A DNA stretch of 33,190 nt. Source: Candidatus Moraniibacteriota bacterium (GTDB taxonomy: Bacteria; Patescibacteriota; Minisyncoccia; JAHIHE01; JAGLIN01). Positions within the stretch are counted from its first letter, which is position 1; each line of letters opens with the position of its first letter. Location: the NCBI GenBank assembly GCA_030641185.1, contig DAOWHY010000015.1, positions 1 through 33,190 of the forward strand, in the 5' to 3' direction. Positions 5,960-28,191 of this stretch are shown here, piece by piece. Made by a program: the position numbers and the translations under genes. A model generated the notes under the pieces. It ran no database searches, was not told where the DNA came from, and saw only the letters and a program-made list of their open reading frames with translations.

Positions 5960-5978
5960 TAAGACTAATTTAGAACCC

Positions 5979-6087: not shown

Positions 6088-6126
6088 TGATAACATTCAA
6101 ATGCGTAAGTCCTATAATCATAAAAA

Positions 6127-7710: not shown

Positions 7711-7712
7711 AA

Positions 7713-7852
7713 TGTCATTGCGAGGAGCCTGAGTAAGCGTAGCGAACGAGAAGGCGACGAAGCAATCCCGTGACTATACTCTTTGTGCATAGTCACGGGA
7801 TTACTTCGTCATTCCGTTTCGCTATCGCTCAACTTCATTCCTCGCAATGACA
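7713..7852. repeat. TGTCATTGCGAGG-type nested palindromic element, copy 1
   Basis: Ends are TGTCATTGCGAGGA...TCCTCGCAATGACA. Inner arms are GACGAAGCAATCCCGTGACTAT / ATAGTCACGGGATTACTTCGTC. Confidence 0.85.
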
Positions 7853-7859
7853 GATTAAA

Positions 7860-8012
7860 TTATTTTTCTTCCTCAATCAATTCCACTTCCAACGGTTCAG
7901 AAGAAATAACTTCATGTTCCGCGCCGCAAGCGGGACAGACTAAAACTTCTCCCAAATCAGGCATATCTTCTTCCACGGGAATTGGAGTTTTGCATTCTTG
8001 GCAATTTGGCAT
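7860..8012 (-). CDS. LysW-like zinc-ribbon protein (50 aa)
   Basis: Hand-translated as MPNCQECKTPIPVEEDMPDLGEVLVCPACGAEHEVISSEPLEVELIEEEK. It has two CxxC pairs and an acidic tail. Confidence 0.5.
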   Translation of the reverse strand: MPNCQECKTPIPVEEDMPDLGEVLVCPACGAEHEVISSEPLEVELIEEEK

Positions 8013-8154
8013 AGATTTGTGATTAACTGGTTATGGGTTTATTATAATGAGGATTTTGTTTGAAGTCAAAGGAAATGAAATAAATGATTTTGGCTATTGC
8101 TATTTTTATGTTCAGCGCTTTTTTGTTAAGAAGATATTATAACAAAAATTAATT

Positions 8155-8556
8155 ATGACAATCAATTATTTAAAACAATTTTCTCTTCTGAATTTGATTC
8201 TATCTATTTTAGTCACTTTTTTGATTTCTGAACCTGGTGTAATTTCTGGTATTGAACACGCAATAGTTCTAATTGCCTCAGCGGGTTTTATTGCTAGTTT
8301 TTTTATCAAAGAAAATTCACTTACTCATTATCTCAAATTAATATTTTTCAACACGCTGATTTTTAGTTTTTCGTTAGGTTTAATTTTTATGACGTTTGCG
8401 TTTATTTTTGATAGTCAGGTTAGGGAATCTTTTCATATTTATCATTTTATCCTTTTAATTTTTCCTATTTCTTTATATGGGCTATGTAATTTTTTCGGCG
8501 GATTGGCAGGAATTATTCCAAAGGGAATTGTTGAAAGATTAAAAATTAGTGAGTGA
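8155..8556 (+). CDS. Integral membrane protein, unknown function
   Basis: Four hydrophobic segments in the ORF-track protein. Confidence 0.6.
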   Translation: MTINYLKQFSLLNLILSILVTFLISEPGVISGIEHAIVLIASAGFIASFFIKENSLTHYLKLIFFNTLIFSFSLGLIFMTFAFIFDSQVRESFHIYHFILLIFPISLYGLCNFFGGLAGIIPKGIVERLKISE

Positions 8557-8582
8557 AATAAATTTTTTAAGCGATATAAAGC

Positions 8583-8610
8583 AAACTGACATCGTAGTCA
8601 GTTTTTTTAA
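8583..8610 (+). terminator. Intrinsic terminator
   Basis: AAACTGAC/GTCAGTTT stem followed by TTTTT. Confidence 0.6.
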
Positions 8611-8657
8611 ATTCAAAAAGTAGTGTATAATAAAAACAAAGAATAGAAAAATTATTT

Positions 8658-9839
8658 ATGTCTAAATCCAAAAAATTAAAATTTCCAAAAGACTTCCTCT
8701 GGGGTTCTTCGGTTTCTTCGTATCAGGTGGAAGGCAATGTTAATAATTGCGATTGGTCAGAAAAATTTCCGGCAAGGACAGCTTGCAATTATTATTTAAA
8801 TTATGAGCATTATTTTGATTTGGCAAAAGAGTTAAATCAAAATGTCCATCGCTTTTCACTTTCCTGGTCAAGAATTCAGCCGGCAGAGGGAAAATTTGAC
8901 CGTAAAGCAATTCTTCATTATCGAAAAATGCTTTTGGCGCTGGAAAAGAGAGGGATAAAACCAATGGTGACGATTTGGCACTGGACTCTTCCTTTGTGGA
9001 TGTCAGAAAAAGGAGGATGGGAAAATTCAAAATTTCCGGAATATTTTGAGCAATACACGAGATTTGTAGTTGAGGAACTTGATGATCTCGTTGATTTTTG
9101 GCTGACGACGAATGAACCGATGATCTACACTTCTCTTGCCTATATCCTGGGAAAATTTCCTCCTCAAAAAAATAATCTATTAGTTGTTCCAAAAGTTTTT
9201 TACAACTTTGTGAAAACTCACAAAAAAGCATATCAAGCCATCCATGATATTAGCGAAAACGCAAAAGTCGGTGTCGCGCAAAATCTTTCTTTTGTGGACG
9301 CTTATAATAAAAATTCTACTTTAAATAAAACCGTGGCAAGCGCTTTTAATTTTTTTAGAAATCGTTTGTTTTTAGAATTAACAAAAAACTATCAAGATTT
9401 TTTGGGAATAAATTATTATTTTCATGACAGAATAAAATTCAGTCCTTTTTCTTTTCCTCCCCTAAAGATTAAAAATAAAGATAAAGAAGTTTCAGATCTG
9501 GGATGGGAAATTTATCCCGAAGGGCTTTATTATGTCTTAAAAGATCTTAAAAAATATAATCTGCCAATTTATATTACGGAAAACGGGTTAGCGGACAAAG
9601 GAGATAAAAAAAGAGCAAAGTTTATCACAGAACATCTCAAGCAAATTCATCGGGCTATTGATGATGGAGTGGATGTAAAAGGATATATGCATTGGTCTCT
9701 AATTGATAATTTTGAATGGGCAGACGGTTTTGGACCAAGGTTCGGGCTTGTTGAAATGAACTATAAAACAATGGGGACTAAGGTTAGGGAGAGTGCGAGA
9801 GGGTACGCAGAAGTATGTAAAAATAATAGCTTATTTTAG
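8658..9839 (+). CDS. Glycoside hydrolase family 1 (beta-glucosidase-like)
   Basis: FLWGSSVSSYQVEG, acid/base TNEP, nucleophile ITENG, and a WSLIDNFEW tail. Confidence 0.9.
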   Translation: MSKSKKLKFPKDFLWGSSVSSYQVEGNVNNCDWSEKFPARTACNYYLNYEHYFDLAKELNQNVHRFSLSWSRIQPAEGKFDRKAILHYRKMLLALEKRGIKPMVTIWHWTLPLWMSEKGGWENSKFPEYFEQYTRFVVEELDDLVDFWLTTNEPMIYTSLAYILGKFPPQKNNLLVVPKVFYNFVKTHKKAYQAIHDISENAKVGVAQNLSFVDAYNKNSTLNKTVASAFNFFRNRLFLELTKNYQDFLGINYYFHDRIKFSPFSFPPLKIKNKDKEVSDLGWEIYPEGLYYVLKDLKKYNLPIYITENGLADKGDKKRAKFITEHLKQIHRAIDDGVDVKGYMHWSLIDNFEWADGFGPRFGLVEMNYKTMGTKVRESARGYAEVCKNNSLF

Positions 9840-9840
9840 C

Positions 9841-9979
9841 TGTCATTGCGAGGAGCGAAATTATCCGAAGGATAATTGAGCGACGAAGCAATCCCGTAAT
9901 TAAATTCACTGCGCGTAGCTACGGGATTGCTTCGTCGCCTTCTCACTCACTGCGTTCGTTCAGGCTTCTCGCAATGACA
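9841..9979. repeat. TGTCATTGCGAGG-type nested palindromic element, copy 2
   Basis: Starts 1 nt after the GH1 stop. It has the same ends and the same GAAGCAATCCCG / CGGGATTGCTTCGTCG core. Confidence 0.85.
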
Positions 9980-10007
9980 GTATCGTTAAAATATAAAATG
10001 TTAATTT

Positions 10008-10910
10008 ATGACTTGGATTCTAATCACAATCATCGCTCATCTTCTCAACGCCGTTGTTTTAATTATTGACAAGCATCTTGTTTCCAATACCGTTCTTCGT
10101 CCGGTTGCTTATACTTTTTACTCCGGCGTTTTTCAGGTTGGTTTTTTACTCTTAATTCCAATCGTTGGATTTACTTTTCCAGAAACGAGATTTTTAATTA
10201 TTGGTGTTTTAAACGGCGCTTTGTTTATTTTAGCTCTTCTTGTTTTTTACAAAGCGATTCGACTAAGCGAAACATCAAGAGTCATTCCAATCGTTGGCGG
10301 ATCTGTTCCGGTTTTTACTTTCTGCTTGTCTTATTTATTTTTAAATGAACGCTTAAGCATCGCTCAAATTGCCGCTTTTATTCTTTTTGTCTTTGGTGGA
10401 ATTTTGATGTCCACAAAATTTGATAATGGAAAGCTAATTATTATTAAAGGATTTTACTTCGCGATTTTATCCGGGCTTTTTTTCGCGGTTTATTACACGC
10501 TGGCAAAATTTCTATTTTTAAACACAGAATTTTTTGACGGATTTCTTCTCCTGCAATTTGGCGGATTTTTAGGATCGTTATTTTTGTTAATCTCTTCAAA
10601 AAACAGAAAAATAATATTTTCCACTCCACAGACAATCAAAAAAAGAACAGCGTTCTTATTCATCCCAAATAAAATTCTCGCCGCTCTCGCCGCAGTAATG
10701 ATTTTCTACGCAATTTCCATAGAAGAAAGCAGTGTCGCGATTATCAATTCCCTGCAAGCGTCGCAATATGTTTTTCTCCTAATTTTCGCGTTTATTCTTT
10801 CCAAAAAACTTCCTGATTTATATAATGAACAAGTTGGGAAAAAAGTGATTATGAAAAAATTATTAGCGATTGGCTTGATTGGGGTGGGGCTGGTTTTATT
10901 AGTTGGATAA
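10008..10910 (+). CDS. DMT/EamA-like transporter
   Basis: About 10 hydrophobic helices in two halves. The family call rests on architecture only. Confidence 0.6.
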   Translation: MTWILITIIAHLLNAVVLIIDKHLVSNTVLRPVAYTFYSGVFQVGFLLLIPIVGFTFPETRFLIIGVLNGALFILALLVFYKAIRLSETSRVIPIVGGSVPVFTFCLSYLFLNERLSIAQIAAFILFVFGGILMSTKFDNGKLIIIKGFYFAILSGLFFAVYYTLAKFLFLNTEFFDGFLLLQFGGFLGSLFLLISSKNRKIIFSTPQTIKKRTAFLFIPNKILAALAAVMIFYAISIEESSVAIINSLQASQYVFLLIFAFILSKKLPDLYNEQVGKKVIMKKLLAIGLIGVGLVLLVG

Positions 10911-10917
10911 AAAAATA

Positions 10918-10941
10918 CAGTAGGAATATTAGATCCTACTG
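10918..10941. terminator. Hairpin between convergent genes
   Basis: CAGTAGGA/TCCTACTG stem. The right arm overlaps the stop of the minus-strand ORF. Confidence 0.45.
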
Positions 10942-11361
10942 CGAAGCTTCTTCTTTTGTTATTTTTGGCCTTACTATTATTTCGAAGGTAAAACCCAGAA
11001 ATATGCCTAATATGACGAATAGCACAACAAGAAAATCTTCTAATGAGCTATATGGCAGTATGCCGTATGCTAATACATTATAGGCATAATTTACCATGCC
11101 AATTGTCATAACCATAACTATAAAAAATCCTTGACTTCTTGGATAGCATAGATGAACGAGTGGTGATTTGTAAAGCAATACTGTTGGAAAAAATCCTATT
11201 CCTGTCCAAATAATTATTACCGCCCAAAAATTAGGAGCGCCAATGGGAGGTAAAATATACCACACATTCAGCATAATCAGAGCAAATATTGCCAATAATA
11301 TTCCCACTAAACCCATTTTAGATCCAAACTTAAAGTCATTTATTATTTGTTCATTATTCAA
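10936..11361 (-). CDS. Integral membrane protein, unknown function
   Basis: ORF track protein with four hydrophobic segments. Confidence 0.6.
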   Translation of the reverse strand: MNNEQIINDFKFGSKMGLVGILLAIFALIMLNVWYILPPIGAPNFWAVIIIWTGIGFFPTVLLYKSPLVHLCYPRSQGFFIVMVMTIGMVNYAYNVLAYGILPYSSLEDFLVVLFVILGIFLGFTFEIIVRPKITKEEASQ

Positions 11362-11416
11362 TTTTTAGTCCTCCATTTATTTATACCTACAAAAAACATA
11401 ACTCAAATCCAAACTT

Positions 11417-12424
11417 ATGTCAATAATAAAAAACCGCAAAACTTCAAGAAAGAAAATTTTGATAGTTATAATTCTTCTTGCTATGATTGCTTTAATAATT
11501 TATTTTATCTACACTCCAAAAAGAGAAGATGTGAAATATGGCGTAACATTTAGCAAACCCTTTGCCGAACATTTGGGATTAGATTGGCAGGAAACATATT
11601 TAGCTTTATTAGACGACGCTGGCGCGAAGAGAGTGCGCCTGCCGTCATATTGGACAGAAATAGAAACAAAAAGAGGCGAATATTCATTTGAAGATTTAGA
11701 CTGGCAAATTAAAGAGGCGGAAAAACGCGGAGTGAAAATAATTCTTTCCCTGGGGCAAAAACAACCGCGCTGGCCGGAATGCCATATTCCAAATTGGGCA
11801 AAAGAACTTAATGAATATGAACGGCAAGATGAGCTTACTAAAATAATTACAAAAGTTATAGAACGATATAAATATAAAGAAGGCATTATTGCCTGGCAGG
11901 TGGAAAACGAACCCTTTTTGGCCTTCGGAGAATGTCCGGAATTTGACAAAAACTTCCTTGATAGAGAAATTGCCTTGGTCCGTTCTCTTGATAGTCGTCC
12001 TGTTATAATTTCTGACAGCGGCGAGCTTGGCACTTGGTATAGCGCCGCGAAACGAGCGGATATTTTAGGAACCACCTTATATAGAATTGTCTGGAACGAT
12101 CACATTGGCTATGTTCATTATCCGATTGCTTCCGTTGTTTACAGAATAAAAGCGGCAATCATTATGTATATTACCGGCGTGGAAAAAATAATCATCGTAG
12201 AATTACAAGCTGAACCTTGGGGACCGGAAATGATAATTAATACACCGATAGAAGAGCAATACAAATCAATGAGCCCGGAGCAGTTTCGTGAGAACATAGA
12301 ATATGTCAAAAAAATAGAATTTTCAGAAGCTTATTTATGGGGAGGAGAATGGTGGTATTGGTTAAAAACAGTTAAGGGCGATGATCGGATTTGGGAAGAA
12401 GCGAAAGAGGTGTTTGAGAATTAG
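11417..12424 (+). CDS. Membrane-anchored clan GH-A (TIM-barrel) glycoside hydrolase, GH5/GH42-like
   Basis: N-terminal TM anchor, RVRLPSYWTEIE..GEY.F..LDW, and a WQVENEP acid/base motif. Confidence 0.7.
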   Translation: MSIIKNRKTSRKKILIVIILLAMIALIIYFIYTPKREDVKYGVTFSKPFAEHLGLDWQETYLALLDDAGAKRVRLPSYWTEIETKRGEYSFEDLDWQIKEAEKRGVKIILSLGQKQPRWPECHIPNWAKELNEYERQDELTKIITKVIERYKYKEGIIAWQVENEPFLAFGECPEFDKNFLDREIALVRSLDSRPVIISDSGELGTWYSAAKRADILGTTLYRIVWNDHIGYVHYPIASVVYRIKAAIIMYITGVEKIIIVELQAEPWGPEMIINTPIEEQYKSMSPEQFRENIEYVKKIEFSEAYLWGGEWWYWLKTVKGDDRIWEEAKEVFEN

Positions 12425-12439
12425 AAATTAATTTTAACC

Positions 12440-12586
12440 TGTCATTGCGAGGAGCCCAAGTGAGCGTAGCGAACGAGAAGGCGATACCGTACTAAATACG
12501 GCACAAGCTCCGCAATCCCGTGATTAAATTCTTCGCGCATAGTTACGGGATTGCTTCGTCGCTCTGCGGAGCTCCTTGCAATGACA
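12440..12586. repeat. TGTCATTGCGAGG-type nested palindromic element, copy 3
   Basis: Same ends as copies 1 and 2. It carries an extra inner hairpin CCGTActaaaTACGG and AGCTCCGCA/TGCGGAGCT arms. Confidence 0.85.
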
Positions 12587-12594
12587 GATCAAAG

Positions 12595-12623
12595 TTGTCA
12601 TAATTTTTCAAAACTATTATACT
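12595..12623 (+). promoter_or_regulatory. Promoter candidate TTGTCA-17-TATACT
   Basis: The -10 box ends 6 nt before the corA ATG. Confidence 0.5.
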
Positions 12624-12629
12624 AAACAT

Positions 12630-13556
12630 ATGATCAAAATATATAGAAAAAAATTAAACGATTTACGGTTGAAGAAAATAAATAAAATAGAAAATGGCAG
12701 TTGGATTTTAGCCACAAATCCAAATAGAGAAGAAATAAAATCGCTCGCAAAATCTCTTAATCTTGATTGGACAATTCTTGAAGATGGGCTTGATGAAAAT
12801 GAAATTTCGCGGATAGAAAAAGACAAAGTTGGAAATTTCTATATGATTATGAGATTTCCGGTTGAGGATGAAGATCATAATATTATAACTATGCCGATTT
12901 TGGTTGTGATAACACAGGATAATATAATAACTTTATGCAAAACAAAAAATAAGATCATAGATAATTTTCTAACACGCAACAGTGATTTTTGCACAACGCA
13001 CAAAACGAATTTTTTGTTAAAAATTATTTTAGAAATTTTTGGCAGTTATGATTTATATCTGAGTAGGATTTTAAAAGATATAAAATCAAAGAAAATAAAA
13101 ATTGGCAATCTGGAAAATAAAGATATCTTATTTTTAGTTCAGGAAGAAGAAACCCTGAATAATTTTGTCTCTTCATTGTTTCCAGCAATAAATATTTTGG
13201 AAAAAATTCTCAGCGGCCGCTATATTACGATTTACGAAAAAGATAAAGATATTATGGAAGATCTTGTAATGGATAGCAATCAGACAATGGAACTTTCCAA
13301 AGCTGGGTCAAGATCAATTAAAAACATCCGCGAAGCATATTCCGCGATTCTCACAAATGAGCTTAACAAAATTATGAAAATTCTGACTTTTGTCACTATC
13401 TTTCTAACTATCCCAACAATCGTTTCCAGCATTTTCGGAATGAATGTCGCCTTGCCCTTAGAAGGAAATCCTCTTGCGTTTTTGTTTGTGATTATGATTA
13501 TATTTTTATTATCAGTTTTGTTTTTTGCGGTGATAAAGGGGAAGAGGTGGATATAG
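12630..13556 (+). CDS. corA: CorA family magnesium transporter
   Basis: GMN motif (IFGMNV) sits between two C-terminal TM helices. Confidence 0.9.
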   Translation: MIKIYRKKLNDLRLKKINKIENGSWILATNPNREEIKSLAKSLNLDWTILEDGLDENEISRIEKDKVGNFYMIMRFPVEDEDHNIITMPILVVITQDNIITLCKTKNKIIDNFLTRNSDFCTTHKTNFLLKIILEIFGSYDLYLSRILKDIKSKKIKIGNLENKDILFLVQEEETLNNFVSSLFPAINILEKILSGRYITIYEKDKDIMEDLVMDSNQTMELSKAGSRSIKNIREAYSAILTNELNKIMKILTFVTIFLTIPTIVSSIFGMNVALPLEGNPLAFLFVIMIIFLLSVLFFAVIKGKRWI

Positions 13557-13557
13557 A

Positions 13558-13593
13558 TAAATTGTTAAATTGTTCTATTGCTAAATTGTTAAT
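13558..13593. repeat. AT-rich AAATTGTTAAATTGTT-type element, half copy
   Basis: About 30/33 identical to the left arm of 17803-17879. Confidence 0.6.
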
Positions 13594-13604
13594 AATAAAT
13601 TTCT

Positions 13605-14057
13605 ATGCCTATAACAAAAGAAAGATTTAAAATAATCCCGGCTGTTTATCTAATTTTAAAAAAGGACGGAAAAATATTATTGTCGCGGCGATATAATACT
13701 GAACATGAAGACGGAAATTATAGTTTAGTTGCTGGACATCTTGAAGGAGATGAATCATTTCGACAGGCGATGATCAGAGAGGCCAAAGAAGAAGCTGATA
13801 TTACTTTGAATGCTAACAATCTAAAAGTTATACATATTACACACAAAAAGAAAGAGCCCGGCGGTGATTCTGAAAGAGTTGATATTTTTTTAAAAACAGA
13901 CAAATGGAAAGGTAAAATAAAAAATATGGAGCCAAATAAGTGTGATGACTTAAAGTGGTTTTTGATAGATGATTTGCCAGAAAATATAGTTTCTTATATT
14001 AGACACGCTTTAAAGCAGATTGAAAAAAATAAATTTTATAGCGAGTTGGGATTTTAG
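13605..14057 (+). CDS. NUDIX hydrolase
   Basis: Nudix box GHLEGDESFRQAMIREAKEEADI. Confidence 0.85.
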   Translation: MPITKERFKIIPAVYLILKKDGKILLSRRYNTEHEDGNYSLVAGHLEGDESFRQAMIREAKEEADITLNANNLKVIHITHKKKEPGGDSERVDIFLKTDKWKGKIKNMEPNKCDDLKWFLIDDLPENIVSYIRHALKQIEKNKFYSELGF

Positions 14058-14076
14058 ATTTTATTATTGAATAATT

Positions 14077-14697
14077 ATGATAAAAAATATTATTTTTGAT
14101 TGGTCAGGAACTTTGAGCGATGATTTGGTTTCTGTTTATACCGCAGTAATGGAAATCTTTAAAAAATTAGGATTAGAAGTTTTAACATTAGAAGAATTTA
14201 AAAAAGAATTTACTCTTCCTTATATGGAATTTTACAGAAAGTTTAAAAAAGATGTTGACAGGGAGGAACTTCAGAAATTATATGCTGAAGAGATTGAGTT
14301 AGTTGCTAAACCAAGACCGTTTTTAGAGGCAAAAGAAGTATTAGAATTTTTAAGACAGAAAGAAATTAAAATGATTTTACTGAGTGTTTATTTACAAAAG
14401 CAATTGGAAGAAGAAATAGAAAATTATAAATTCCAGAATTTTTTTGTTGATATAAATGGAAGCGTATATGATAAAACCAAAGTTGTCGCGGAGATAATGA
14501 GTAAAAATAATTTCAAATCAGATGAGACTATTTTTATTGGCGATATGACGCATGATATAGATGCCGGCAAAAAAGCGGGAGTAATAACAGTAGCAGTTTC
14601 TTATGGATATCAATCAAAAGAGAAATTACTTGAAAAAAATCCAGATTTTTTAATTGAAAATTTGGGAGAGTTAAAAAATGTTGTACTGTCAGTATAA
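14077..14697 (+). CDS. HAD superfamily hydrolase
   Basis: Motif I is FDWSGTL (second Asp replaced by Ser). A late GDMTHDIDAGKKAG motif is present. Confidence 0.8.
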   Translation: MIKNIIFDWSGTLSDDLVSVYTAVMEIFKKLGLEVLTLEEFKKEFTLPYMEFYRKFKKDVDREELQKLYAEEIELVAKPRPFLEAKEVLEFLRQKEIKMILLSVYLQKQLEEEIENYKFQNFFVDINGSVYDKTKVVAEIMSKNNFKSDETIFIGDMTHDIDAGKKAGVITVAVSYGYQSKEKLLEKNPDFLIENLGELKNVVLSV

Positions 14698-17604: not shown

Positions 17605-17796
17605 ATGAATGTTATTAAAAGCTCAAATAAGTATATTACTGAAGTAAAAACTGAAGCAAAAAAAATAAGTTGGCCAACCAAAAAAGTGACTGTTAGAGAT
17701 TCTGTTATAGTTGTGGCTATTAGTTTAGCGACCGCCGCGTTTTTAGGAGGCGTTGATTATTTGTTGTCATATTTAATTAAAGAATTTGTCGTTTAA
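17605..17796 (+). CDS. secE: Preprotein translocase subunit SecE
   Basis: EVKTEAKKISWPTKKV followed by a single TM helix, and a position immediately before nusG. Confidence 0.85.
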   Translation: MNVIKSSNKYITEVKTEAKKISWPTKKVTVRDSVIVVAISLATAAFLGGVDYLLSYLIKEFVV

Positions 17797-17802
17797 TAAA
17801 AT

Positions 17803-17879
17803 AAATTGTTAAATTGTTACATTGCTAAACTGTTATGCATAGCACAATTAATAAAGCAATTTAACAATTTAACAATTTA
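17803..17879. repeat. AT-rich palindromic element, full copy
   Basis: Arms are AAATTGTTAAATTGTTACATTGC ... GCAATTTAACAATTTAACAATTT, with 1 mismatch. Confidence 0.7.
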
Positions 17880-17892: not shown

Positions 17893-18438
17893 ATGCCAAA
17901 ACAAACAGCTGATTTTGGAAGAAACTGGTATGTTTTACATACTTATTCCGGATACGAAGATAATGTCTGCAGAAATTTAATGCAGAGAATTGAATCTATG
18001 GATATGGAAGATAAGATCTTCAGTGTTTTAGTCCCAAAAGAAAATAAGATAAAAATAAAAAACGGAAAGAGAAAAGTCGTGGAAGAAAGAATTTTCCCCG
18101 GCTATGTTTTGGTGGAAATGATCGTAACTGACGATTCATGGTATGTTGTTCGAAACACCCCGAATGTAACTGGTTTCATTGGTTCAGGAACCACTCCAAC
18201 TCCAATATCGGAAGATGAAATACGCGCGTTGAAAGCAAGAATGGGAGTTAAGGAGCCGAAATATAAAATTGATGTTTCTATCGGCGATATTGTAAAAATC
18301 AATGATGGACCATTTAAGGATTTTGATGGCAAGGTAGATGGTGTTGACGAAGAAAAAGGAAAAATAAAAGTTCTTGTTCAAATGTTCGGAAGAGAAACGC
18401 CATTAGAGTTGGATTTTTTGCAGATCAAAAAGATTTAG
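17893..18438 (+). CDS. nusG: Transcription termination/antitermination factor NusG
   Basis: WYVLHTYSGYE, FPGYVLV, and KOW motif GDIVKINDGPFKDFDGKV. Confidence 0.95.
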   Translation: MPKQTADFGRNWYVLHTYSGYEDNVCRNLMQRIESMDMEDKIFSVLVPKENKIKIKNGKRKVVEERIFPGYVLVEMIVTDDSWYVVRNTPNVTGFIGSGTTPTPISEDEIRALKARMGVKEPKYKIDVSIGDIVKINDGPFKDFDGKVDGVDEEKGKIKVLVQMFGRETPLELDFLQIKKI

Positions 18439-18460
18439 TATTGTCATTTCTAAATTTAAG

Positions 18461-18662
18461 TGTCATCCTGAACTTGTTTCAGGATCTTCCAATTCTTACG
18501 ATAGTTTATCCTATAAATCATCAAACATTTTGACCGAAGCGAAAACATGATTACAATATAAAACAAAAAGACAGTTGTATCTACACTTTAGATGAAAGAT
18601 AATATTAAATAAGATAAATTAACCTAAAATATAAAAGATTCTGAAACAAGTTCAGAATGACA
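18461..18662. mobile_element. MITE-like element with 26-bp terminal inverted repeats
   Basis: TGTCATCCTGAACTTGTTTCAGGATC pairs with GATTCTGAAACAAGTTCAGAATGACA (24/26). An extra TGTCAT lies at 18442. Confidence 0.6.
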
Positions 18663-18687
18663 ATGTTTATTACTAAATACTAAACTC

Positions 18688-19113
18688 ATGGCAAAAAAAA
18701 TTGAAAAAATAGTTAAGTTACAAATTCCCGCGGGGAAAGCTAATCCTGCTCCGCCAATTGGGCCAGCTCTGGGACAGGCGGGAATTAATATTCAGGAATT
18801 TTGCACTCGTTTTAATAACGAATCAAAAGATAAAATGGGAGATGTTATTCCTGTGGAGATTTCAGTTTATGAAGATAAGTCTTACAATTTTATAATGAAG
18901 ACCCCTCCCGCCGCGGAATTATTAAAAAAAGCGGCTGGAATTAAAAAGGGTTCTAAAGAACCGCAGAAAGATAAAGTTGGGAAGATTACAAAAAAGCAAT
19001 TACAAGAAATAGCGGAATTAAAAATGCAAGATTTAACCGCGAATGATGTTGAAGGCGCGATGAAGATTATCGCGGGAACGGCGAGACAGATGGGGGTAGA
19101 GATTAAAGAATAA
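18688..19113 (+). CDS. rplK: 50S ribosomal protein L11
   Basis: [22 protein letters not shown] and full-length conservation. Confidence 0.95.
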
Positions 19114-19184
19114 GAATTTATGTTTAATTTATTAATCAATTAATTAAAATCTTTTTAAAAAAGATTTTAGAAAGGGACTAAAAA

Positions 19185-21608
19185 ATGAAAAAAAGTATTT
19201 ATCAAAAAAAGGGAAGTGTGATGTTTATTGCTTTTCTTCTTCTGTTGTCGTTAGTGTCTGGAGTTGAAGAATCTAAAGCCGTTGTTGATCAGAAAGTTTC
19301 TCCTTGCGATTCTTATGGAGATATAAATTTAGATGGCTATGTAACAGCGGCAGACTCGTCTTTGGCTGCTGATAATATTACGGGCAAAGTTTTTTTTGGA
19401 ACTTATGAAATAATTCTTGCTGATGTTAATTTTAATGGTCGTGTTGATATAGGCGATGTAGCCGCAATTGATTCTTTTGTTGCTGGCAGTATAACGACTT
19501 TTCCCGTATGTAGTAAAAGTATAAAAGTTATAAGCCCTAACGGCGGTCAGATCTTTGAAATAGGACAAGAAGTGGAAATTTCATTTACTAATTCATTAAC
19601 TGAAACAACTATTATCGCAATTACTGATAATTTAAAAACTACTTATGCCATAGGTTCAGCTAGCGGTAATTCTAATAATGCCATACAAAAAATGACTTGG
19701 AGCATTCCTTCAAATGTAGTTTTAGGGAATTATAAAATTTTGATAAAAGCGTTGCCTAGTTTTGGACATGTTATGGCTGGTCAGGATTATAGCGACAATT
19801 ATTTTCAAATTATTGGAAATAAAAAACCTCCTTGCGCTTCATATGGAGATTTAGATAATGACGGTTATGTGACAAATTTAGACGAGACTATGGCTGCTGA
19901 CGGTCTTAGCGGCAAGATAATTCTTAGCGAGTCTGAAGAAAGCCGTGCGGATGTCAATTATAATGGTCGTCTTGATATAGGAGATGTTGCGGCAATCGGT
20001 TCTTTTGCTACCTGTAATATTACAACTTTTCCTGTGTGCGCTACAAAATCAGTAAAAGTTATTAGTCCGAATGGCGGAGAGGTTGTTGATAACGAAAAAG
20101 AGATTTTATGGAGCACGAGTAATCTTGGCAGTGGAGTTTGTTCGATTTATTTGTATAATGCGATTGGCACTGAACAGGTAATAAAGACTATAATGCTTAA
20201 TCAACCTTCGTCTTATACCAGATACCAATGGAATTTAACAAGTGATTATACTGATGGAAAATATAAAATTAGCGTACAGTGTAGCGAGCACGGGAATTCC
20301 GCAGTTTATTCGGATAAGTCAGATAATTATTTTAGCATTATTAGGTCTGGTAAAGCTTCTGTGGATTTAATAGTAGAAAGTGTAAGAATTGATGAATATC
20401 ATAATACCATTGCAAAGATTAAAAATGTAGGCACAGTGGTTTATGACGCCTCTCTTTCTTATAATGACATATTTATTAATTGGAAAGATCTGACAAGCGG
20501 AAAAACTGGATCAATAAAGAATTATAGAATAGTAAATATTCCCGCGGGCGGCTCTGAGGAATTTATTATTACGAAAGATATTGTTGCCGAAGGAGAACAC
20601 AATCTTGAAATAACTGTTGATCCTGATAATGTTGTTATAGAATCTAACGAAAATAATAATGTAAGCAATCTTTCTGTTGTAATTTCTAGTAAAAAACTTC
20701 CAGATTTAGTAATAACAGGAATAGAAGTTAAAAAAGTAGTTGACCCGCATTTAGGCGAGGGTATTGATATCATTGCGCAAGTTAAAAATATAGGTGAAGG
20801 TTATTATATTTACGGTGATTCTAGGGTAGAAAAGTTTATAAGTTGGAGCGATTCAATTAGCGGCAAATCTGGCAGTATAGGAAATTATAAATTAATATCT
20901 ATTTTACCGGGAGAAACAAAAGAATATTCAATATATAGAACGGGGTTAGATCTTGAGTTTTATAATATTAGAATTATCGTAGATCCTGAAAATATTATTG
21001 AAGAATCTAATAATCAAAATAATACTTTCATTAAAAATAGCGCTATAAATAGTTGTCTAATAGATGGAACTCTAGTTAAGCTCCCTAATGATCCTAAAAT
21101 ATATGTAATAATAAATTGCAAGAGATATTGGGTTAAGACCGCGAAAGAATTTCAAAGAAGAGGATATAAATGGGAAAACATTAAAATTACAACTGATGAT
21201 GAATTAAACGCATTGCCAGAAGATTCTGGAAATGCTCAAGATATAAAAGAAGGAGCTATAATTAGAGCCAATGGCGATGTTGATATTTATATTGTAAAGT
21301 ATATAGGCAATAAAAAATTCAAAAGGCTTATTTTAAACCCTTCCGTATTCAGAAGTTATGGGCATCTAAGGTGGGAGGATGTCATAGGGGTAGAAAAAGA
21401 AACTGTAAATTCTTTTACGACTTCAAATTTAGTTCGCAACGCAAGAACCGGAAGAATATACAGATTAACCGCTAACGGAGATAACGGAATAAGAAGGCAC
21501 TTCAGAAGCATTAGCGTAATGCAAAGGCTAGGACACGATCTTGACGCTGTGTATGAAATAAATGAGACTGACGAGAGATCTTACGAACAAGGTGAGGATT
21601 TTAAATAG
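19185..21608 (+). CDS. Secreted multidomain surface protein
   Basis: Signal peptide, two DxNxDGxV...DVNxNGRxDIGD dockerin-like modules each followed by an Ig-like module (VKVISPNGG), two CARDB-like modules (NVG/NIG...VDP(D/E)N...ESNxxNN), and a C-terminal repeat domain. Confidence 0.85.
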   Translation: MKKSIYQKKGSVMFIAFLLLLSLVSGVEESKAVVDQKVSPCDSYGDINLDGYVTAADSSLAADNITGKVFFGTYEIILADVNFNGRVDIGDVAAIDSFVAGSITTFPVCSKSIKVISPNGGQIFEIGQEVEISFTNSLTETTIIAITDNLKTTYAIGSASGNSNNAIQKMTWSIPSNVVLGNYKILIKALPSFGHVMAGQDYSDNYFQIIGNKKPPCASYGDLDNDGYVTNLDETMAADGLSGKIILSESEESRADVNYNGRLDIGDVAAIGSFATCNITTFPVCATKSVKVISPNGGEVVDNEKEILWSTSNLGSGVCSIYLYNAIGTEQVIKTIMLNQPSSYTRYQWNLTSDYTDGKYKISVQCSEHGNSAVYSDKSDNYFSIIRSGKASVDLIVESVRIDEYHNTIAKIKNVGTVVYDASLSYNDIFINWKDLTSGKTGSIKNYRIVNIPAGGSEEFIITKDIVAEGEHNLEITVDPDNVVIESNENNNVSNLSVVISSKKLPDLVITGIEVKKVVDPHLGEGIDIIAQVKNIGEGYYIYGDSRVEKFISWSDSISGKSGSIGNYKLISILPGETKEYSIYRTGLDLEFYNIRIIVDPENIIEESNNQNNTFIKNSAINSCLIDGTLVKLPNDPKIYVIINCKRYWVKTAKEFQRRGYKWENIKITTDDELNALPEDSGNAQDIKEGAIIRANGDVDIYIVKYIGNKKFKRLILNPSVFRSYGHLRWEDVIGVEKETVNSFTTSNLVRNARTGRIYRLTANGDNGIRRHFRSISVMQRLGHDLDAVYEINETDERSYEQGEDFK

Positions 21609-21678
21609 TGACATTAAAGGCGCGATGAAAATTATCGCCGGGACCGCGAGGCAGATGGGAATAGAGGTGAAGGGATAG
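21607..21678 (+). pseudogene. Orphan duplicate of the rplK 3' end (last 23 codons plus stop)
   Basis: Encodes [23 protein letters not shown], against [23 protein letters not shown] at 19042-19113. Identity is 56/72 nt by hand alignment. Confidence 0.8.
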
Positions 21679-21723
21679 AAATCGCATGTTTAAAATTTAT
21701 TTAATAACCAACTAACAAAAAAT

Positions 21724-22791
21724 ATGGAAATAGAAAAATCAACAACAGATAAATCAAAATTAATTTTGGTTATCGCTGTTATAATTTTAGTAGGAGCTTT
21801 GTTTGGCGTTATGGGTTATTTGTTGGGAAATAAAAATAATAATACTGTTATTAAATCAGAAGATCAAATGGCAAAAGATCAAGGCATAGATAATAATAAA
21901 GAAACTGAAAAAGATGAAAATATAGAAGAAGATGTAAGAACTGATGTTAAGGACGAAAAAGAGAATTGGAAAATATATGAAAATGACAAATATGGATTTG
22001 AAGTAACATTATTAGATTCATGGAAGGGGTATGAGGTTTTGACAGAATCTTGGAAGGGAATATCCTTAGATGGCGATTCTAAACAGTATCAAGGTCCACA
22101 GATTATCATCAGAAATCCAAAATGGTCTATTTCTAAACCATGGCAGGATATTCCTATAATGGTCTTTACAAAAGACGAATGGGAATTAATAGAAGCGAAA
22201 AATTTAAGTGTTAATGCTGCTCCCATTGGACCAAATAAATTAGACGAAAACCAACAATATGTTTTTGCCCTGCCTCCGCGCTGGATAGGATTCACTGACA
22301 ACTTAGGGCAAGATGAAGCGCAAGAAATTTCAAAGACCATTAAAGCAATTTCTGTTACTACTAATAAGGACGAGACTGCTGATTGGCAAGTATACGAAAA
22401 TAAAGAATTTGGATTTGAAATAAAATACCCTGAAAACATAGAATATTATCCAAAAACTTGGGGTGTTGATTTTATGGAGAAATCTGAAGCTCAAGATAAA
22501 CTTTTTACTATATATCTTTATAATGAATTGAAGCAATTACCAAACAATGAGACGGGGCTTAGTTTTGAAGACTGGATAAATAAACAGATTGAAAATAAAA
22601 TTTTTGAAGATGGAAGAATATTTAAAAATGACACGCTGACTGGAATTAAAGTGCGAGATCAGGGAGTTGTGCCATTTAAAAACATTCTAGTAAAGAAGGA
22701 TAATAAAACATACAGCTTTGTTATTAGAGAAGATTCTCGGTTTATGGACGTGTTTGATCAAATACTTTCAACCTTAAAATCTGTAAATTGA
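21724..22791 (+). CDS. Membrane-anchored protein with two related domains
   Basis: N-terminal TM helix. ENWKIYENDKYGFEV and ADWQVYENKEFGFEI each start a repeated module. Confidence 0.7.
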   Translation: MEIEKSTTDKSKLILVIAVIILVGALFGVMGYLLGNKNNNTVIKSEDQMAKDQGIDNNKETEKDENIEEDVRTDVKDEKENWKIYENDKYGFEVTLLDSWKGYEVLTESWKGISLDGDSKQYQGPQIIIRNPKWSISKPWQDIPIMVFTKDEWELIEAKNLSVNAAPIGPNKLDENQQYVFALPPRWIGFTDNLGQDEAQEISKTIKAISVTTNKDETADWQVYENKEFGFEIKYPENIEYYPKTWGVDFMEKSEAQDKLFTIYLYNELKQLPNNETGLSFEDWINKQIENKIFEDGRIFKNDTLTGIKVRDQGVVPFKNILVKKDNKTYSFVIREDSRFMDVFDQILSTLKSVN

Positions 22792-22852
22792 TTTAAATAA
22801 TTAATCGTGGGAGCGTTGCAAAATGCGTTATTACCACATAAGAAAGAAAAAT

Positions 22853-23533
22853 ATGAAAAGATCAAAACGATATAAAAGCGTTAAGGAAAAAATTGAGAAA
22901 GATAAAAAGTATAGCGTTGAGGAAGCGGTGGATTTTTTAATTGAAAACGCAAAAGTGAAATTTGACGAGAGCGTTGAAGTTCATTTTAGAACTAACATTA
23001 ATCCCAAACAGGCGGATCAATTAATTAGAGGGGCGGTTGTTTTGCCGCATGGTGTTGGAAAAGAAAAAAGAGTTGCCGTATTTGTTGATGGCGATAAAGT
23101 CGCAGAAGCGAAGGAAGCTGGTGCGGATCTTGTTGGCGGAGAGGAATTGATAAGTAAAATAAAACAGACAAAAGAAATTGACTTTGACGTTTCTGTGGCC
23201 ACACCAGATATGATGAGAAAACTCGCTGGCATTGCTAAAATTCTTGGACCAAAAGGATTAATGCCTTCTCCAAAAACCGATACAGTTACAATGGATATTA
23301 AAAAAACTGTTGAACAACTTAAAAAAGGAAAAATAAATTTTAAAAACGATGATTCTGGAAATGTCCATCAGATGGTTGGGAAAGTATCTTTAGGTAAAGA
23401 TAAATTAAAAGAAAATGTCACTGCTTATGTTCAAGCAATTAAAGATTCTCGTCCCAGCGGAGTAAAGGGGGAGTTTCTTAAAACTATTACGGTGAGTTCT
23501 ACGATGGGAGTGGGGATTAGGATTGGGTTGTAG
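22853..23533 (+). CDS. rplA: 50S ribosomal protein L1
   Basis: MKRSKRYKSV... and GAVVLPHGVGK. I chose the ATG at 22853 over the track start at 22823. Confidence 0.95.
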   Translation: MKRSKRYKSVKEKIEKDKKYSVEEAVDFLIENAKVKFDESVEVHFRTNINPKQADQLIRGAVVLPHGVGKEKRVAVFVDGDKVAEAKEAGADLVGGEELISKIKQTKEIDFDVSVATPDMMRKLAGIAKILGPKGLMPSPKTDTVTMDIKKTVEQLKKGKINFKNDDSGNVHQMVGKVSLGKDKLKENVTAYVQAIKDSRPSGVKGEFLKTITVSSTMGVGIRIGL

Positions 23534-24212: not shown

Positions 24213-24710
24213 ATGCCCGAACAAAAAACAAAAAAATGCTGTAACTGCAAAGCGCCGTTTTTAATCTTTGCTTTATTTGTTTTAATTGTTGCGTTTTTTC
24301 TAAATACTAACATTACCAATGAAAATGGCGCGAATGTTGGCTTAAATACAGAGGTAAATGTTGAAAATAATATTGATGATAAGCAGGAAAAAGTAGATAA
24401 ACAAGTAAACGAGAAAAGCGAAGAAAAAGAAAATGTTATTTCTTATTCTTTTGACGCAAGCGATGAAGAAAGAACGGTTTTTTCCGGGCTTTTAAATTAT
24501 GGCGAAGAAAATAATATTGAAGTTGAATATAATAATGATTATGGTGAATACGGGGTTTTCGTAGAAAATATTGCCGGAATTAAAAACGGCGACGATGGGA
24601 AATATTGGCAGTATTATATAAATAATATTTTAGGCGATGTTGCGGCAGATAAAAAAGTTTTAGAAGAAGGAAATGAAGTAGAGTGGAGATTTGAGGAAGT
24701 GCCATTTTAG
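24213..24710 (+). CDS. DUF4430 domain protein, membrane anchored
   Basis: GKYWQYYINN...V..GNEVEWRF C-terminal pattern and an N-terminal TM helix. Confidence 0.7.
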   Translation: MPEQKTKKCCNCKAPFLIFALFVLIVAFFLNTNITNENGANVGLNTEVNVENNIDDKQEKVDKQVNEKSEEKENVISYSFDASDEERTVFSGLLNYGEENNIEVEYNNDYGEYGVFVENIAGIKNGDDGKYWQYYINNILGDVAADKKVLEEGNEVEWRFEEVPF

Positions 24711-24740
24711 GTGTATTTGTAATTATTTCAAATTATTAAA

Positions 24741-24845
24741 TGTCATTGCGAGAGAGCCGCAGCGACCGAAGCAATCCCGCAACTATGCACAAGGAGTTTA
24801 ATTTCGGGATTGCTTCGTCGCCCTTCGGGGCTCCTCGCAATGACA
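24741..24845. repeat. TGTCATTGCGAG-type nested palindromic element, copy 4 (short)
   Basis: TGTCATTGCGAGAG...CCGAAGCAATCCCG...CGGGATTGCTTCGTCG...CTCGCAATGACA. Confidence 0.85.
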
Positions 24846-24861
24846 GTGAAGTTCACAACTT

Positions 24862-25521
24862 ATGAACAAACTAAAAATCATCTCAGCAATACTTCTTATT
24901 TTCATCGGTGTAGCTGGTAGATTTATTCTGGTTGAATATGTCGGCATTCCTAATTTTGAAATAATCACCGCATTATCTTTGATCGCGGGAATATATTTGG
25001 GCGGGGTTTATATGATTATCGTCCCACTGGCAATAATATTTTTAAGCGACTTGGTAATCGGCAATAATTATATTTTTATTTTTACTTGGACAGCGTTTAT
25101 GTTTATTGGGTTGTTTGGATTTTTATTTAGAAAAAAAACTTGTCATTCCCATGAAAAAATTTGTCATTCCCGCACTGAAACAAAGTTCAGCATAAACTCC
25201 GGCGGGAATCCAGTAAACACGACTAATAGTAATTCTAAAAATTTTCCATTCAAAAATTCAATAAAATTAGCATTAATTTCTTCTATATTTTTCTACCTCT
25301 ACACCAACTTCGGCTGGTGGCTGATGTCGGGAATGTATGAGCATACTTTATCGGGACTAATAAGATGCTACTATATGGCAATTCCGTTTTTTAGAAATAA
25401 TTTAATGGGAAATTTGATTTTTGTGCCAATGGGGATTTATGTCGCTTCAAAAGCGGTTTATTGGGTTGAAAATAAAAATTGTAACTTATCTAAATGGAAA
25501 ATAAAACTCAAAACAAAATAG
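24862..25521 (+). CDS. Polytopic membrane protein (ECF S-component/DUF6580-like), interrupted by a repeat-derived loop
   Basis: Hydrophobic helices lie on both sides of a polar insert, TCHSHEKICHSRTETKFSINSGGNPV. The family call is tentative. Confidence 0.65.
   Translation: MNKLKIISAILLIFIGVAGRFILVEYVGIPNFEIITALSLIAGIYLGGVYMIIVPLAIIFLSDLVIGNNYIFIFTWTAFMFIGLFGFLFRKKTCHSHEKICHSRTETKFSINSGGNPVNTTNSNSKNFPFKNSIKLALISSIFFYLYTNFGWWLMSGMYEHTLSGLIRCYYMAIPFFRNNLMGNLIFVPMGIYVASKAVYWVENKNCNLSKWKIKLKTK
25141..25212. repeat. In-frame TGTCATTCCC...GGGAATCCAG palindromic element inside a CDS
   Basis: 72 nt, codon-aligned. TGTCATTCCC is duplicated at 25141 and 25162. The inner sequence CTGAAACAAAGTTCAG resembles the 18461-18662 arms. 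Confidence 0.7.
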
Positions 25522-26682: not shown

Positions 26683-28191
26683 ATGAACGAAAAAATTAAA
26701 ACTAAATGGCCTGCTTATAAAGACAAGATGTTAGTTGCGGGTAATCAAAATAGCCAAGTAGCAATCTGTACTCTGTGGACAAAAAAGGAGTTAATGGCCG
26801 AGAAGTTAGACATGAATAAAATTTCCGTGATTGGAAATTTGTATTCTCCCAAGAGGGGAGTTAGTTTTTTAGTCAGGAATATTTTGGCAAATCCTAAAAT
26901 TAGATATCTGATTGTTTGCGGATTGGATAGGTCTGGCAGCGGACAAGTTTTGGTTGATCTTGCTAAAAATGGATTTAAAAAAAATGAAAGCAAAAAAAAT
27001 AGTAGAGACTATTGGCAAGCAATCAGCAATATTGAGAACAGGATAGATATTGAGATAGAGAGAAAGGCGCTGGAAACTTTTTGCAAATTCGTAGAAGTAA
27101 TAGACGCGCGGGAGGAAAAAGATCTTGGGAAAATTCAAAATGTAATTGATAATCTAAATCAAAATCTACCGTCTTTTATTCCAGATCCCTTGATTTTTCC
27201 GGATCCGCCCAAAGAAAAAACAAATATTTTTCCTGCTGAATCGTCCGCGCATGTTATTAGAGGAGAAAGAATTGCCGAGGTTTGGCTGAAAATTCTGGAT
27301 CATATCTTAAAATTTGGAATTACAGATCAAACTGCTTATCAGAATCAACAGAAAGAAATCATAGACATAATTTCTGTAATCTCAGACGAAGATCCTGATA
27401 ACTTATATATTCCGGGGTGGTTGCCAAATAATAGAGAACATCTAAAGAATTATCTGCCAACTATCTTAACGGGAAATTGTCCTACTGGAACTTCTTATAC
27501 TTATGGTTCCAGAATGCGAGATCATTTTGATGTTGATCAAGTTCAAAATGTGATTGACGAACTTAAGCAAGAGAAATATAGCCGCAGAGCAACAATTAGT
27601 CTTCTTGATCCAAGGATTGACACTAAAAGCAAAAATCCGCCCTGCTTAAACCATTGTTGGTTTAGAATTCAACAAAATAGATTATATCTAGTGTCCACTA
27701 TACGAAGCAACGATATGTTTGAAGCTTGGCCGGAAAATGCGTTTGGTTTAAGGATGTTGCAAAATTTAGTTTGGAAAGAGCTTTTGGGAACTTATTCCGA
27801 AATAAAACTTGGCAATCTTGAAATCCATTCTTTATCTGCTCATGCCTATGACGATTCGTGGGAAGAAGCAAAACAGACTGTGGAAAAGTATTATAATCAA
27901 GTTGTTCCGCATCCAAGAAATATTAGAGATCTGCGAGGAAACTTTATAATCAGGATTGAGAATAATGAAATTATCGTTGAACACTACTCGTCTGATGAAG
28001 TTTTGCTTAATGTCTATAAAAACAAAAAGGCAATGCCAATTTATTTTGAATTAAGCAGGAATGAAGCAATTTCTCTTGTTTCTCATGCTTTATATATCGG
28101 CACCGAATTGCAAAAAGCGGAGGTAGCAATAAAACTGGGAATTGAATACAAGCAAGACCAAGAATTAGATCCAAATACATTAAATTTATAA
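26683..28191 (+). CDS. MtrA-like/DUF4346 domain fused to thymidylate synthase (ThyA-like)
   Basis: SD AAAGGAG upstream. N-terminal AICTLW...ANPKIRYLIVCG. C-terminal PPCLNH (Cys321, nt 27643-27645), RSND and WPEN. Confidence 0.8.
   Translation: MNEKIKTKWPAYKDKMLVAGNQNSQVAICTLWTKKELMAEKLDMNKISVIGNLYSPKRGVSFLVRNILANPKIRYLIVCGLDRSGSGQVLVDLAKNGFKKNESKKNSRDYWQAISNIENRIDIEIERKALETFCKFVEVIDAREEKDLGKIQNVIDNLNQNLPSFIPDPLIFPDPPKEKTNIFPAESSAHVIRGERIAEVWLKILDHILKFGITDQTAYQNQQKEIIDIISVISDEDPDNLYIPGWLPNNREHLKNYLPTILTGNCPTGTSYTYGSRMRDHFDVDQVQNVIDELKQEKYSRRATISLLDPRIDTKSKNPPCLNHCWFRIQQNRLYLVSTIRSNDMFEAWPENAFGLRMLQNLVWKELLGTYSEIKLGNLEIHSLSAHAYDDSWEEAKQTVEKYYNQVVPHPRNIRDLRGNFIIRIENNEIIVEHYSSDEVLLNVYKNKKAMPIYFELSRNEAISLVSHALYIGTELQKAEVAIKLGIEYKQDQELDPNTLNL

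Follow-up and report, generated by a model that had tools for sequence, protein, structure and literature searches.

An orphan rplK tail beside a surface-protein gene in the rplK-rplA interval of a Patescibacteria genome

Two rplK tails around one gene

The stretch analyzed here, 33,190 nucleotides (nt) of contig DAOWHY010000015.1 (the window), is a chromosomal piece of a low-GC (about 33%) genome of the candidate phyla radiation (CPR), or Patescibacteria, and its closest database relatives carry the labels Parcubacteria, Paceibacterota or Moraniibacteriota. In it, the rplK gene is followed by a gene for a secreted/surface protein of 807 amino acids (aa), whose stop codon abuts a second copy of the end of rplK, here called the relic. 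A gene for a 355-aa protein, an RNA motif resembling the L1 operator, and rplA lie farther downstream (Table 1). The locus resembles the gene-end duplications found at integration sites but is without a recombinase, and the substitution pattern of its second tail is unexpected.

The last 23 codons plus stop of rplK (19042-19113) align without gaps to 21607-21678 at 56 of 72 positions, as an earlier note made from the sequence alone had counted by hand, and the local alignment that it called for scored 82, against 20.6 ± 2.7 (maximum 35) in 500 shuffles. By blastn, the repeat shows 78% identity over 88 nt (E = 1.3e-14), all other matches within the window having E ≥ 0.04, and a repeat search of the window lists the two as family D3. 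Uninterrupted identity between the copies extends over at most 11 nt (GGCGCGATGAA), a run that most L11 genes also keep because it encodes GAM(K) and that has no evident inverted binding sites flanking it. As described earlier, the relic has no L11 body upstream and lies in a different frame from the 807-aa open reading frame (ORF), namely, frame +1, overlapping its stop codon (TAG, 21606-21608). The share of differences at third codon positions, put at about half, proved to be higher (10 of 16), and the likeness said to continue past both stops is weakly present: 19120-19149 and 21686-21721 align with four gaps (p = 0.035 for this pair alone), but the comparison with the relic flank of L173, one of the 148 loci of relatives that were fetched and given L numbers, yielded p = 0.37. 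The duplicated coding tail measures 70-72 nt, perhaps with about 35 nt of flank as well; the window relic is free of indels, while the flank requires the four gaps. The post-stop sequence was rejected as a general promoter or cassette motif, given that in the window only the relic flank matches it and the count is at chance level.

The 807-aa protein combines a signal-like N-terminus with two dockerin domains, a Kre9/KNH Ig-like domain, and two CARDB domains (Pfam), which makes "surface protein" a fair label. Its gene, with a Shine-Dalgarno (SD)-like AAAGGGA before the ATG, is untruncated. All homologues, which are also found in other genomic contexts, end at the same residue, so the stop codon is native; family members elsewhere end in GAT-TTR-GAR-stop. 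At the right junction, rplK codon 119 directly adjoins this TAG, the two sharing 1-2 bases at most, and the first two bases assigned to the relic are the AG of the TAG. The true start of the relic is therefore probably 21609, base 3 of the Asn119 codon, and what looks like an Asn-to-Ser change in its first codon stems from the junction and is no substitution. On the left side, the sequence runs unbroken through rplK, and the insert amounts to exactly one gene plus 71 nt. This left spacer includes an A/T-only hairpin at about 19146-19168, and its positions 19116-19140 match the region upstream of a family member at L172, where no rplK is present, at 22 of 24 positions (p < 0.0005), a hint that the 807-aa gene came in as one piece with the functional tail and its flank. 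The idea that a programmed +1 frameshift appends the relic to the 807-aa protein was rejected: the last sense codon reads AAA in the window but GAG in L173, so that a slippery site is not conserved, and another two or three in-frame stops follow.

No integrase, recombinase, or transposase domain was detected by Pfam in any ORF of at least 90 aa across the whole 33-kb window, in agreement with the earlier note, to which no integrase was visible. The scan of the window for tRNA and tmRNA yielded no gene, which rules out an attachment site of the tRNA type, and Rfam searches of the whole window at gathering thresholds and of 18400-23000 at permissive settings returned nothing relevant. No com or rec genes lie in the window. 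Neither cargo gene has relatives on viral contigs, and a phage or plasmid origin of the cargo was rejected on that ground. Exact-protein look-ups found neither the window L11 nor the 807-aa protein on record, the former being 94-95% identical to the L11 proteins of the closest relatives.

Table 1. Features of the window around the two rplK tails
Feature	Coordinates	Strand	Basis or remark
secE	17605-17796		
nusG	17893-18438		
rplK (ribosomal protein L11, 141 aa), complete	18688-19113	+	Both Pfam L11 domains, full-length match
Functional last 23 codons plus stop of rplK (copy W)	19042-19113	+	Alignment
Spacer between rplK and the 807-aa gene	19114-19184	+	Conserved in L173 4655-4731
Cargo gene 1, 807-aa secreted/surface protein	19185-21608	+	Pfam
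Orphan rplK tail, the relic (copy R)	21607-21678	+	Alignment; same junction in L173 6836-6922
Relic flank, up to the start of the 355-aa gene	21679-21723	+	42/45 identical to L173/L082
Cargo gene 2, 355-aa membrane-anchored protein	21724-22791	+	Outside the repeats; no Pfam match
L1-operator-like RNA motif	22807-22837	+	Same motif at 86/148 loci
rplA (ribosomal protein L1, 226 aa from ATG 22853)	22853-23533	+	Pfam Ribosomal_L1; homologues called at 226 aa; start alignment

The same arrangement is present in a second lineage. L173, a contig of an independent European Nucleotide Archive (ENA) assembly from a different sample set, carries in order rplK, the conserved flank, a 702-aa member of the 807-aa family, a TAG abutting an rplK tail, the relic flank, an orthologue of the 355-aa gene, the L1 operator, and rplA. 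The junction register is the same in both lineages, TAG being followed by T GAC ATT in the window and by C GAT ATT in L173 (TAG followed by Y GAY ATT), and the sequence around the junction is 14-17% diverged between them. A further sample yielded L082, which matches L173 at 99.9% identity along 1334 nt beginning inside the relic. Since the same junction occurs in a second, independent assembly, the architecture of the window is no misassembly, and the event either predates this genome or has passed between lineages.

The L173 contig has peculiarities of its own. Its positions 1-8340 hold a 3.6-kb block (702-aa gene, relic, 355-aa gene, operator, and 5' part of rplA) twice, 431-3909 being identical to 4812-8290. 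The first copy follows an unrelated gene with a near-consensus promoter (TTTACA-17-TATAAT), and its rplA has a premature TAG at codon 15, as in L082; near codon 139, a miniature inverted-repeat transposable element (MITE) leading into rplK interrupts the gene. The doubled block is either a second genomic copy or an assembly-graph tangle; the rplK-cargo and cargo-relic adjacencies lie within, or are bounded by, unique sequence. At 6893-6904, the L173 relic carries a 12-nt expansion, with ATGGGG three times instead of once, which adds an in-frame Met-Gly-Met-Gly. As for the surface-protein gene, window 19185-21608 and L173 4732-6840 are 84-86% identical (nt) over the 5' untranslated region and N-terminus and 86% identical over the last ~545 nt, while their middles differ, a pattern of like ends and unlike middles that suggests domain shuffling within the gene.

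The rplK-rplA spacer and the L1-operator-like motif

The gap between rplK and rplA is below 150 nt at 101 of 143 loci. When only loci with an L11 at least 80% identical to that of the window are considered, 8 of 12 carry cargo of at least 1 kb, drawn from five or more different gene sets, including two small genes at L164 (L11 95%), a DUF4430 plus DUF6580 pair at L169/L170 and L003-L005, and two membrane-protein genes at L084. The comparison of rplK-rplA synteny proposed by the earlier note revealed unoccupied sites with a gap of 214-368 nt in the close relatives L001, L002, and L166/L167 (214 nt in L001, whose L11 is 94% identical), and none of these holds a second rplK tail. Indeed, among the loci searched for such a tail, the window and L173 alone have one. 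The spacer is therefore a cargo hot spot among close relatives, where single genes are gained, lost, and swapped. The separation of 3.7 kb that had been attributed to the inserted 807-aa gene stands as a distance, from the rplK stop to the likely rplA start at 22853, but it does not result from that insertion alone, since 1.07 kb of it is the second cargo gene (21724-22791).

The 355-aa protein has two repeats of a domain common in CPR, and its gene has an 85% orthologue at the same position in L173/L082. Identity to L173 reaches 93-98% in the middle of the gene (window 21900-22440), against 77-88% for its ends and neighbours; four-fold sites of the gene differ by 16% from L173 (57% in rplK), yet 15% of the residues differ. 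Such a pattern could stem from recent exchange or from unusual constraint. The DUF4430 plus DUF6580 pair is also present in the window, at 24213-25521, downstream of rplA, whereas it is found between rplK and rplA in L169 (3336-4424), L003, L004, and L005, and this shift in position implies a rearrangement around rplA.

The motif upstream of rplA consists in the window of GTGGGAG, a hairpin, and CGTT..ACCAC (CGYT-N3-ACCAC across the loci), and it ends 15 nt before the likely rplA start; the start of the mechanically called rplA ORF, at 22823, falls inside it. The motif has no match among Rfam families, and it occurs upstream of rplA at 86 of 148 loci, with a stem that covaries between loci. 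In E. coli, as Baughman and Nomura reportedly established in 1983, the L1 site lies ahead of rplK, and rplA is controlled through coupling. Here, rplA has its own putative L1 operator directly upstream, so that cargo would be tolerated at the spacer and L1 feedback need not break, which would be the reason why the operon tolerates splitting. Decayed copies of the operator were observed at L171 (87-125; GTGGGAACGTT...AACGCATTCAT, with the ACCAC arm lost) and at L083 (about 870-905), in each case upstream of a 355-aa-type gene that follows another such gene. These decayed operators are a second kind of relic of the ribosomal-operon flank carried between cargo genes.

Cargo also lies elsewhere in conserved operons. 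At L174 (GCA_964412905.1), a 7.6-kb block (6424-14077) between rpoB and rpoC holds a relative of the 807-aa gene, a HepT/nucleotidyltransferase pair, and other genes; the spacers share short direct repeats, and the rpoC end with its flank (17774-17827) recurs at 21688-21741. The splitting of conserved operons by cargo may be general in these genomes. Two further features of the window deserve mention. A single 502-aa ORF (26683-28191) combines MtrA-like, thymidylate-synthase-like, and PterinBD (DUF4346) domains and adjoins genes for dCTP deaminase and thymidylate kinase. MITE-like inverted-repeat elements occupy intergenic spacers at 18461-18514/18609-18662 (between nusG and rplK), 7704-7810, 9880-9988, 12434-12587, and 24763-24846, and copies of these families are held by L002, L005, L164, L166, and L173.

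Divergence of the tails and origin of the relic

The two tails diverge in the manner of alleles. The relic is 77.8% identical to the tail of its own genome and 81.9% identical to those of L164 and L166; its identity to the tails of L001, L164, L166, and L005 (79-82%) is in the same range as that of functional tails between species. The amino-acid core of the relic is the commonest ending among the closest L11 proteins, whereas the functional ending ...GVEIKE* was found in 0 of 120. Compared with the consensus of the nearest relatives, the relic carries 11 synonymous and 2 non-synonymous changes, 11 of the 13 at third positions. The dN/dS of tail versus relic is 0.09 in the window (p = 9e-4) and 0.02 in L173 (p = 4e-6), and it lies between 0.02 and 0.12 in all comparisons that involve a relic. 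These distances and the mostly synonymous changes argue that the tails are alleles of different lineages that were brought together, rather than products of a recent local duplication that has decayed, and that each belonged to a working gene during their divergence. In line with this, the relic retains 50% GC and 65% GC3, uneroded in a genome of 33% GC. The description of it as an orphan relic is hence correct in that no gene body accompanies it, but too simple in that no neutral decay is seen. Two approaches were given up: choosing the native tail by distance to relatives, for which 72 nt with near-saturated third positions give no resolution, and concerted evolution of tail and relic within each genome, as, of the sites that differ between the relics, two agree with the genome they sit in, two run counter to it, and all others are private.

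We consider it somewhat probable that the second tail is the scar of a homology-anchored insertion, by one-sided homologous plus illegitimate recombination or by a Campbell-type single crossover, after which the block persisted or spread. The incoming DNA would have come from a related lineage, bringing an rplK 3' end, a short flank, and the 807-aa gene into a genome in which the 355-aa gene followed rplK. The left join would be homologous, inside rplK, and the right join illegitimate, linking the base after the cargo stop with base 3 of rplK codon 119; the outcome would be identical if a small circle bearing an rplK tail had integrated by single crossover. In either case, the incoming tail would now complete rplK, and the other tail would have been displaced 2.5 kb downstream, without a gene body. 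The likely engine is host homologous recombination after DNA uptake, with no dedicated recombinase, and ordinary homologous recombination anchored in rplK may later have kept the block or spread it between lineages. The insertion itself, as read in the earlier note, agrees with what was found, the 807-aa gene being bracketed by two diverged rplK ends and relatives having unoccupied sites. The more specific proposal of a Campbell integration with a heterologous tail finds support in tails that behave as alleles of different lineages, but this route and linear one-sided homologous plus illegitimate recombination leave the same sequence. Both have precedents: in E. coli, circles with partial homology produced duplications of 109-950 bp by single crossover, and homology-facilitated illegitimate recombination has also been described (PMC3240628). 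Moreover, natural competence and homologous insertion of cassettes were demonstrated in Saccharibacteria, and com genes are conserved across CPR (PMC10633639), so that by analogy the lineage of the window may be competent, and natural transformation may have played a part.

Later movement of the block is suggested by several observations. The rplK of L173 looks mosaic, switching sub-clade states near nt 270-350: its group-diagnostic sites are 15 B to 2 A in nt 1-267 and 3 B to 7 A in nt 279-402 (Fisher p = 0.004). The divergence between the window and L173 at four-fold sites falls from 57% in the rplK body to 35% at the 3' end of the cargo gene and 16% in the 355-aa gene, and the unoccupied L001 is nearer to the window than L173 is in both rplK and rplA. 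Taken together, the mosaic, the segment-wise divergence, and the closeness of L001 suggest horizontal movement anchored in rplK. In L173, a recipient's own tail turned relic is unsupported, since the relic there has the Gln16 of the donor group and not the Asn of the group of its rplK body.

Several findings weigh against a homology-anchored insertion followed by spread. The drop in identity of the window rplK 3' end relative to its relatives is inconsistent (p = 0.05 for L001, p = 0.003 for L166, none for L164) and leaves the left crossover unmapped. No genome of the donor type was found, in which an 807-aa-family gene would come directly after rplK without a relic, and at L081 a family member precedes a 355-aa-like gene with neither relic nor rplK, an order that the model does not predict. 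A join exactly at the stop codon is improbable for random illegitimate joining unless intact cargo was selected. The L173 contig, with its duplicated block, is tangled. A single old event would moreover predict neutral decay, and this is not what the relics exhibit. Those of the window and L173 differ at 10 positions in codons 2-23, 7 of them third positions, with 3 amino-acid changes; this corresponds to a coding-like dN/dS of about 0.10 (Fisher p = 0.004), and neutral simulations gave a probability of 0.001-0.006 for three or fewer amino-acid changes. Their mutual divergence is 35% at third and 6.5% at other positions, as compared with 39% and 6% for functional rplK. By least squares on a hand-counted distance matrix of the tails and relics of the window and L173, the relic branches (7.5 and 4.5) are as short as those of the functional tails (7 and 5), with an internal branch of about 1.5 substitutions, whereas a neutral copy is expected to have a branch about 3-4 times longer. 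Finally, all these tail and relic statistics come from 23 codons and two relic-bearing lineages. The simplest account of such coding-like relics is, we suggest, repeated patching from functional rplK alleles, neighbouring or imported; in a recombination-dominated population, patching would make the relic evolve like rplK. Direct selection, be it on a spare gene end or on a homology arm, would be more novel.

Among the other explanations, a site-specific cassette of the type of e14, or of phage 21 at icd, would carry its own rplK end, with its recombinase elsewhere or lost, and would integrate independently in each lineage at a fixed point in codon 119, displacing the native tail. A fixed point would give the junction register common to two lineages, the layout is like that of icd-e14-icdC (PMC13626634), the relics look recently functional, with a divergence equal to that of functional rplK, and genomes nearer to the window than L173 lack the cassette. 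We nevertheless hold it improbable: neither the insert nor the 33-kb window contains a tyrosine or serine recombinase or a transposase domain, the insert is only one gene plus 71 nt and has no viral-contig relatives, and the longest shared run of 11 nt has no evident inverted binding sites. Furthermore, the relics share not only the TAG but also Gln16/GAG20, with the L173 relic in the donor group and not in that of its rplK body, which fits one origin and block transfer. An island that targets and restores a gene end, which the earlier note had offered as an alternative to Campbell integration, fails likewise for want of a recombinase and because the insert is a single gene. A local origin of the repeat can also be envisaged, about 105 bp of the rplK end having been copied in place by template switching or repair synthesis when the cargo was inserted, and the downstream copy having drifted since. 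Direct repeats do flank the insert exactly, GAG at codon 20 is found only in the tails and relics of the window and L173, and the tail-versus-relic comparison of the window, taken alone, fits a mixture of constrained and neutral sites (not rejected, p about 0.1). Such a copy is, however, difficult to reconcile with a relic that is no nearer to its own tail than to those of other species, that differs from relatives by 11 synonymous to 2 non-synonymous changes, that has branches equal to those of functional tails where a neutral copy should have longer ones, that is uneroded in GC and GC3, and that lacks indels while its flank needs four gaps, so that local duplication appears quite improbable, more so than a site-specific cassette.

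Whatever the origin of the relic, selection might keep it, as a spare gene end, as a homology arm, or for translation from the internal ATG at 21625. The low dN/dS of relic versus relic, attained in 0.1-0.6% of the neutral simulations, speaks in favour of this, as do the stop codon at the same place in both lineages and the fact that recombination between the two copies would yield a clade-consensus L11 end, much as e14 excision yields a functional chimeric icd (PMC13626634). Yet two lineages and 23 codons are all that the pattern spans, patching by gene conversion or imported DNA gives the same pattern without selection, and the L173 relic has its 12-nt ATGGGG expansion and a change of the last residue from Gly to Arg. 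Translation of the relic is unsupported: apart from the internal ATG, neither a start codon nor an SD is conserved upstream, and in L173 a stop precedes the relic by two codons in its frame. RNA structure was rejected as a function, the fold being neither conserved nor more stable than shuffles (z = -1.0 in the window and 0.0 in L173) and a small hairpin (GCGAUGA/UUAUCGC) being a by-product of the A-M-K-I-I-A codons. A promoter inside the relic was rejected as well, the one match at 21608-21635 being weak (9/12), one of 33 where 20.6 are expected, and not conserved in L173. We rate selection on the relic as improbable to the same degree as a site-specific cassette. An assembly artefact, that is, a chimeric contig of two strains or a collapsed repeat, comes to mind given that the source is probably a metagenome assembly, that related populations co-occur, and that L173 itself is tangled; but the junction joins non-homologous sequence and is not the product of graph errors at shared k-mers, and the same junction lies in unique sequence of an independent assembly, 14-17% diverged, with its downstream part backed by a third contig. 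The probability of an artefact is accordingly very small.

Significance and comparison with known systems

The locus offers a natural, datable case of cargo gain in genomes with few or no mobile-element genes, in which an essential gene would serve as the anchor and a readable scar is left behind. As hot spots, rplK-rplA and perhaps rpoB-rpoC should help to find strain-variable surface proteins that may mediate host attachment. If the conservation of the orphan tail holds, core-gene fragments would be carried in a recombining allele pool and would give a handle on recombination rates in uncultured bacteria; on another reading of the same conservation, the tail would be under selection as a component of a recombinase-free cassette system. 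An unlikely version of the latter is that the orphan tail is the working part of a self-targeting cassette, a portable right homology arm and a spare gene end in one, kept by selection or by allele exchange. If so, a surface-protein gene could enter related genomes at rplK without damage to L11, and its loss would be harmless; surface proteins would then be reversibly gained and lost at the ribosomal operon of reduced CPR genomes, with the rpoB-rpoC block of L174 as another instance.

The closest known parallel is icd-e14-icdC of E. coli K-12, a family (which also includes phage 21) outside which the present locus falls. There, the gene continues into the element, the opposite end of which carries a C-terminal pseudogene, and a functional chimera results from excision (PMC13626634). 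In both systems, the 3' ends of a housekeeping gene bracket the insert, the functional gene uses the copy on the element side, and the far fragment is bodiless. The copies also differ largely by synonymous changes in both, as Hill et al. are said to have noted in 1989 for icd and icdC. Direct repeats of the target-gene 3' end, a complete rplK, and unoccupied sites in relatives were all found here. At this locus, no recombinase lies inside the element by an attachment site. A 15-kb prophage remnant, e14 encodes an integrase of its own and is excised site-specifically upon SOS induction, whereas the insert here is a single 2.4-kb dockerin/CARDB gene in 33 kb that hold no recombinase, and the target, unlike icd, is a ribosomal protein gene of a CPR bacterium.

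With tRNA/tmRNA islands and integron cassettes, the locus shares the reuse of a conserved gene end, cargo bounds near start and stop codons, and a single site whose cargo varies from strain to strain, but unlike them it has no integrase, attC-like inverted repeat, attI, or tRNA gene; the cargo stop abuts the relic directly, and the repeat search detected no inverted repeat there. With homology-facilitated illegitimate and Campbell recombination, it has in common one homologous anchor combined with one non-homologous join or a single crossover: one junction is without homology, the other lies in homologous sequence, and a duplication adjoins the anchor. The duplication of roughly 70-105 bp also compares with the about 100-950 bp of such events (PMC3240628). 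The laboratory events used identical anchors, whereas in the present case the copies are 22% diverged and the arrangement is found in lineages about 15% apart.

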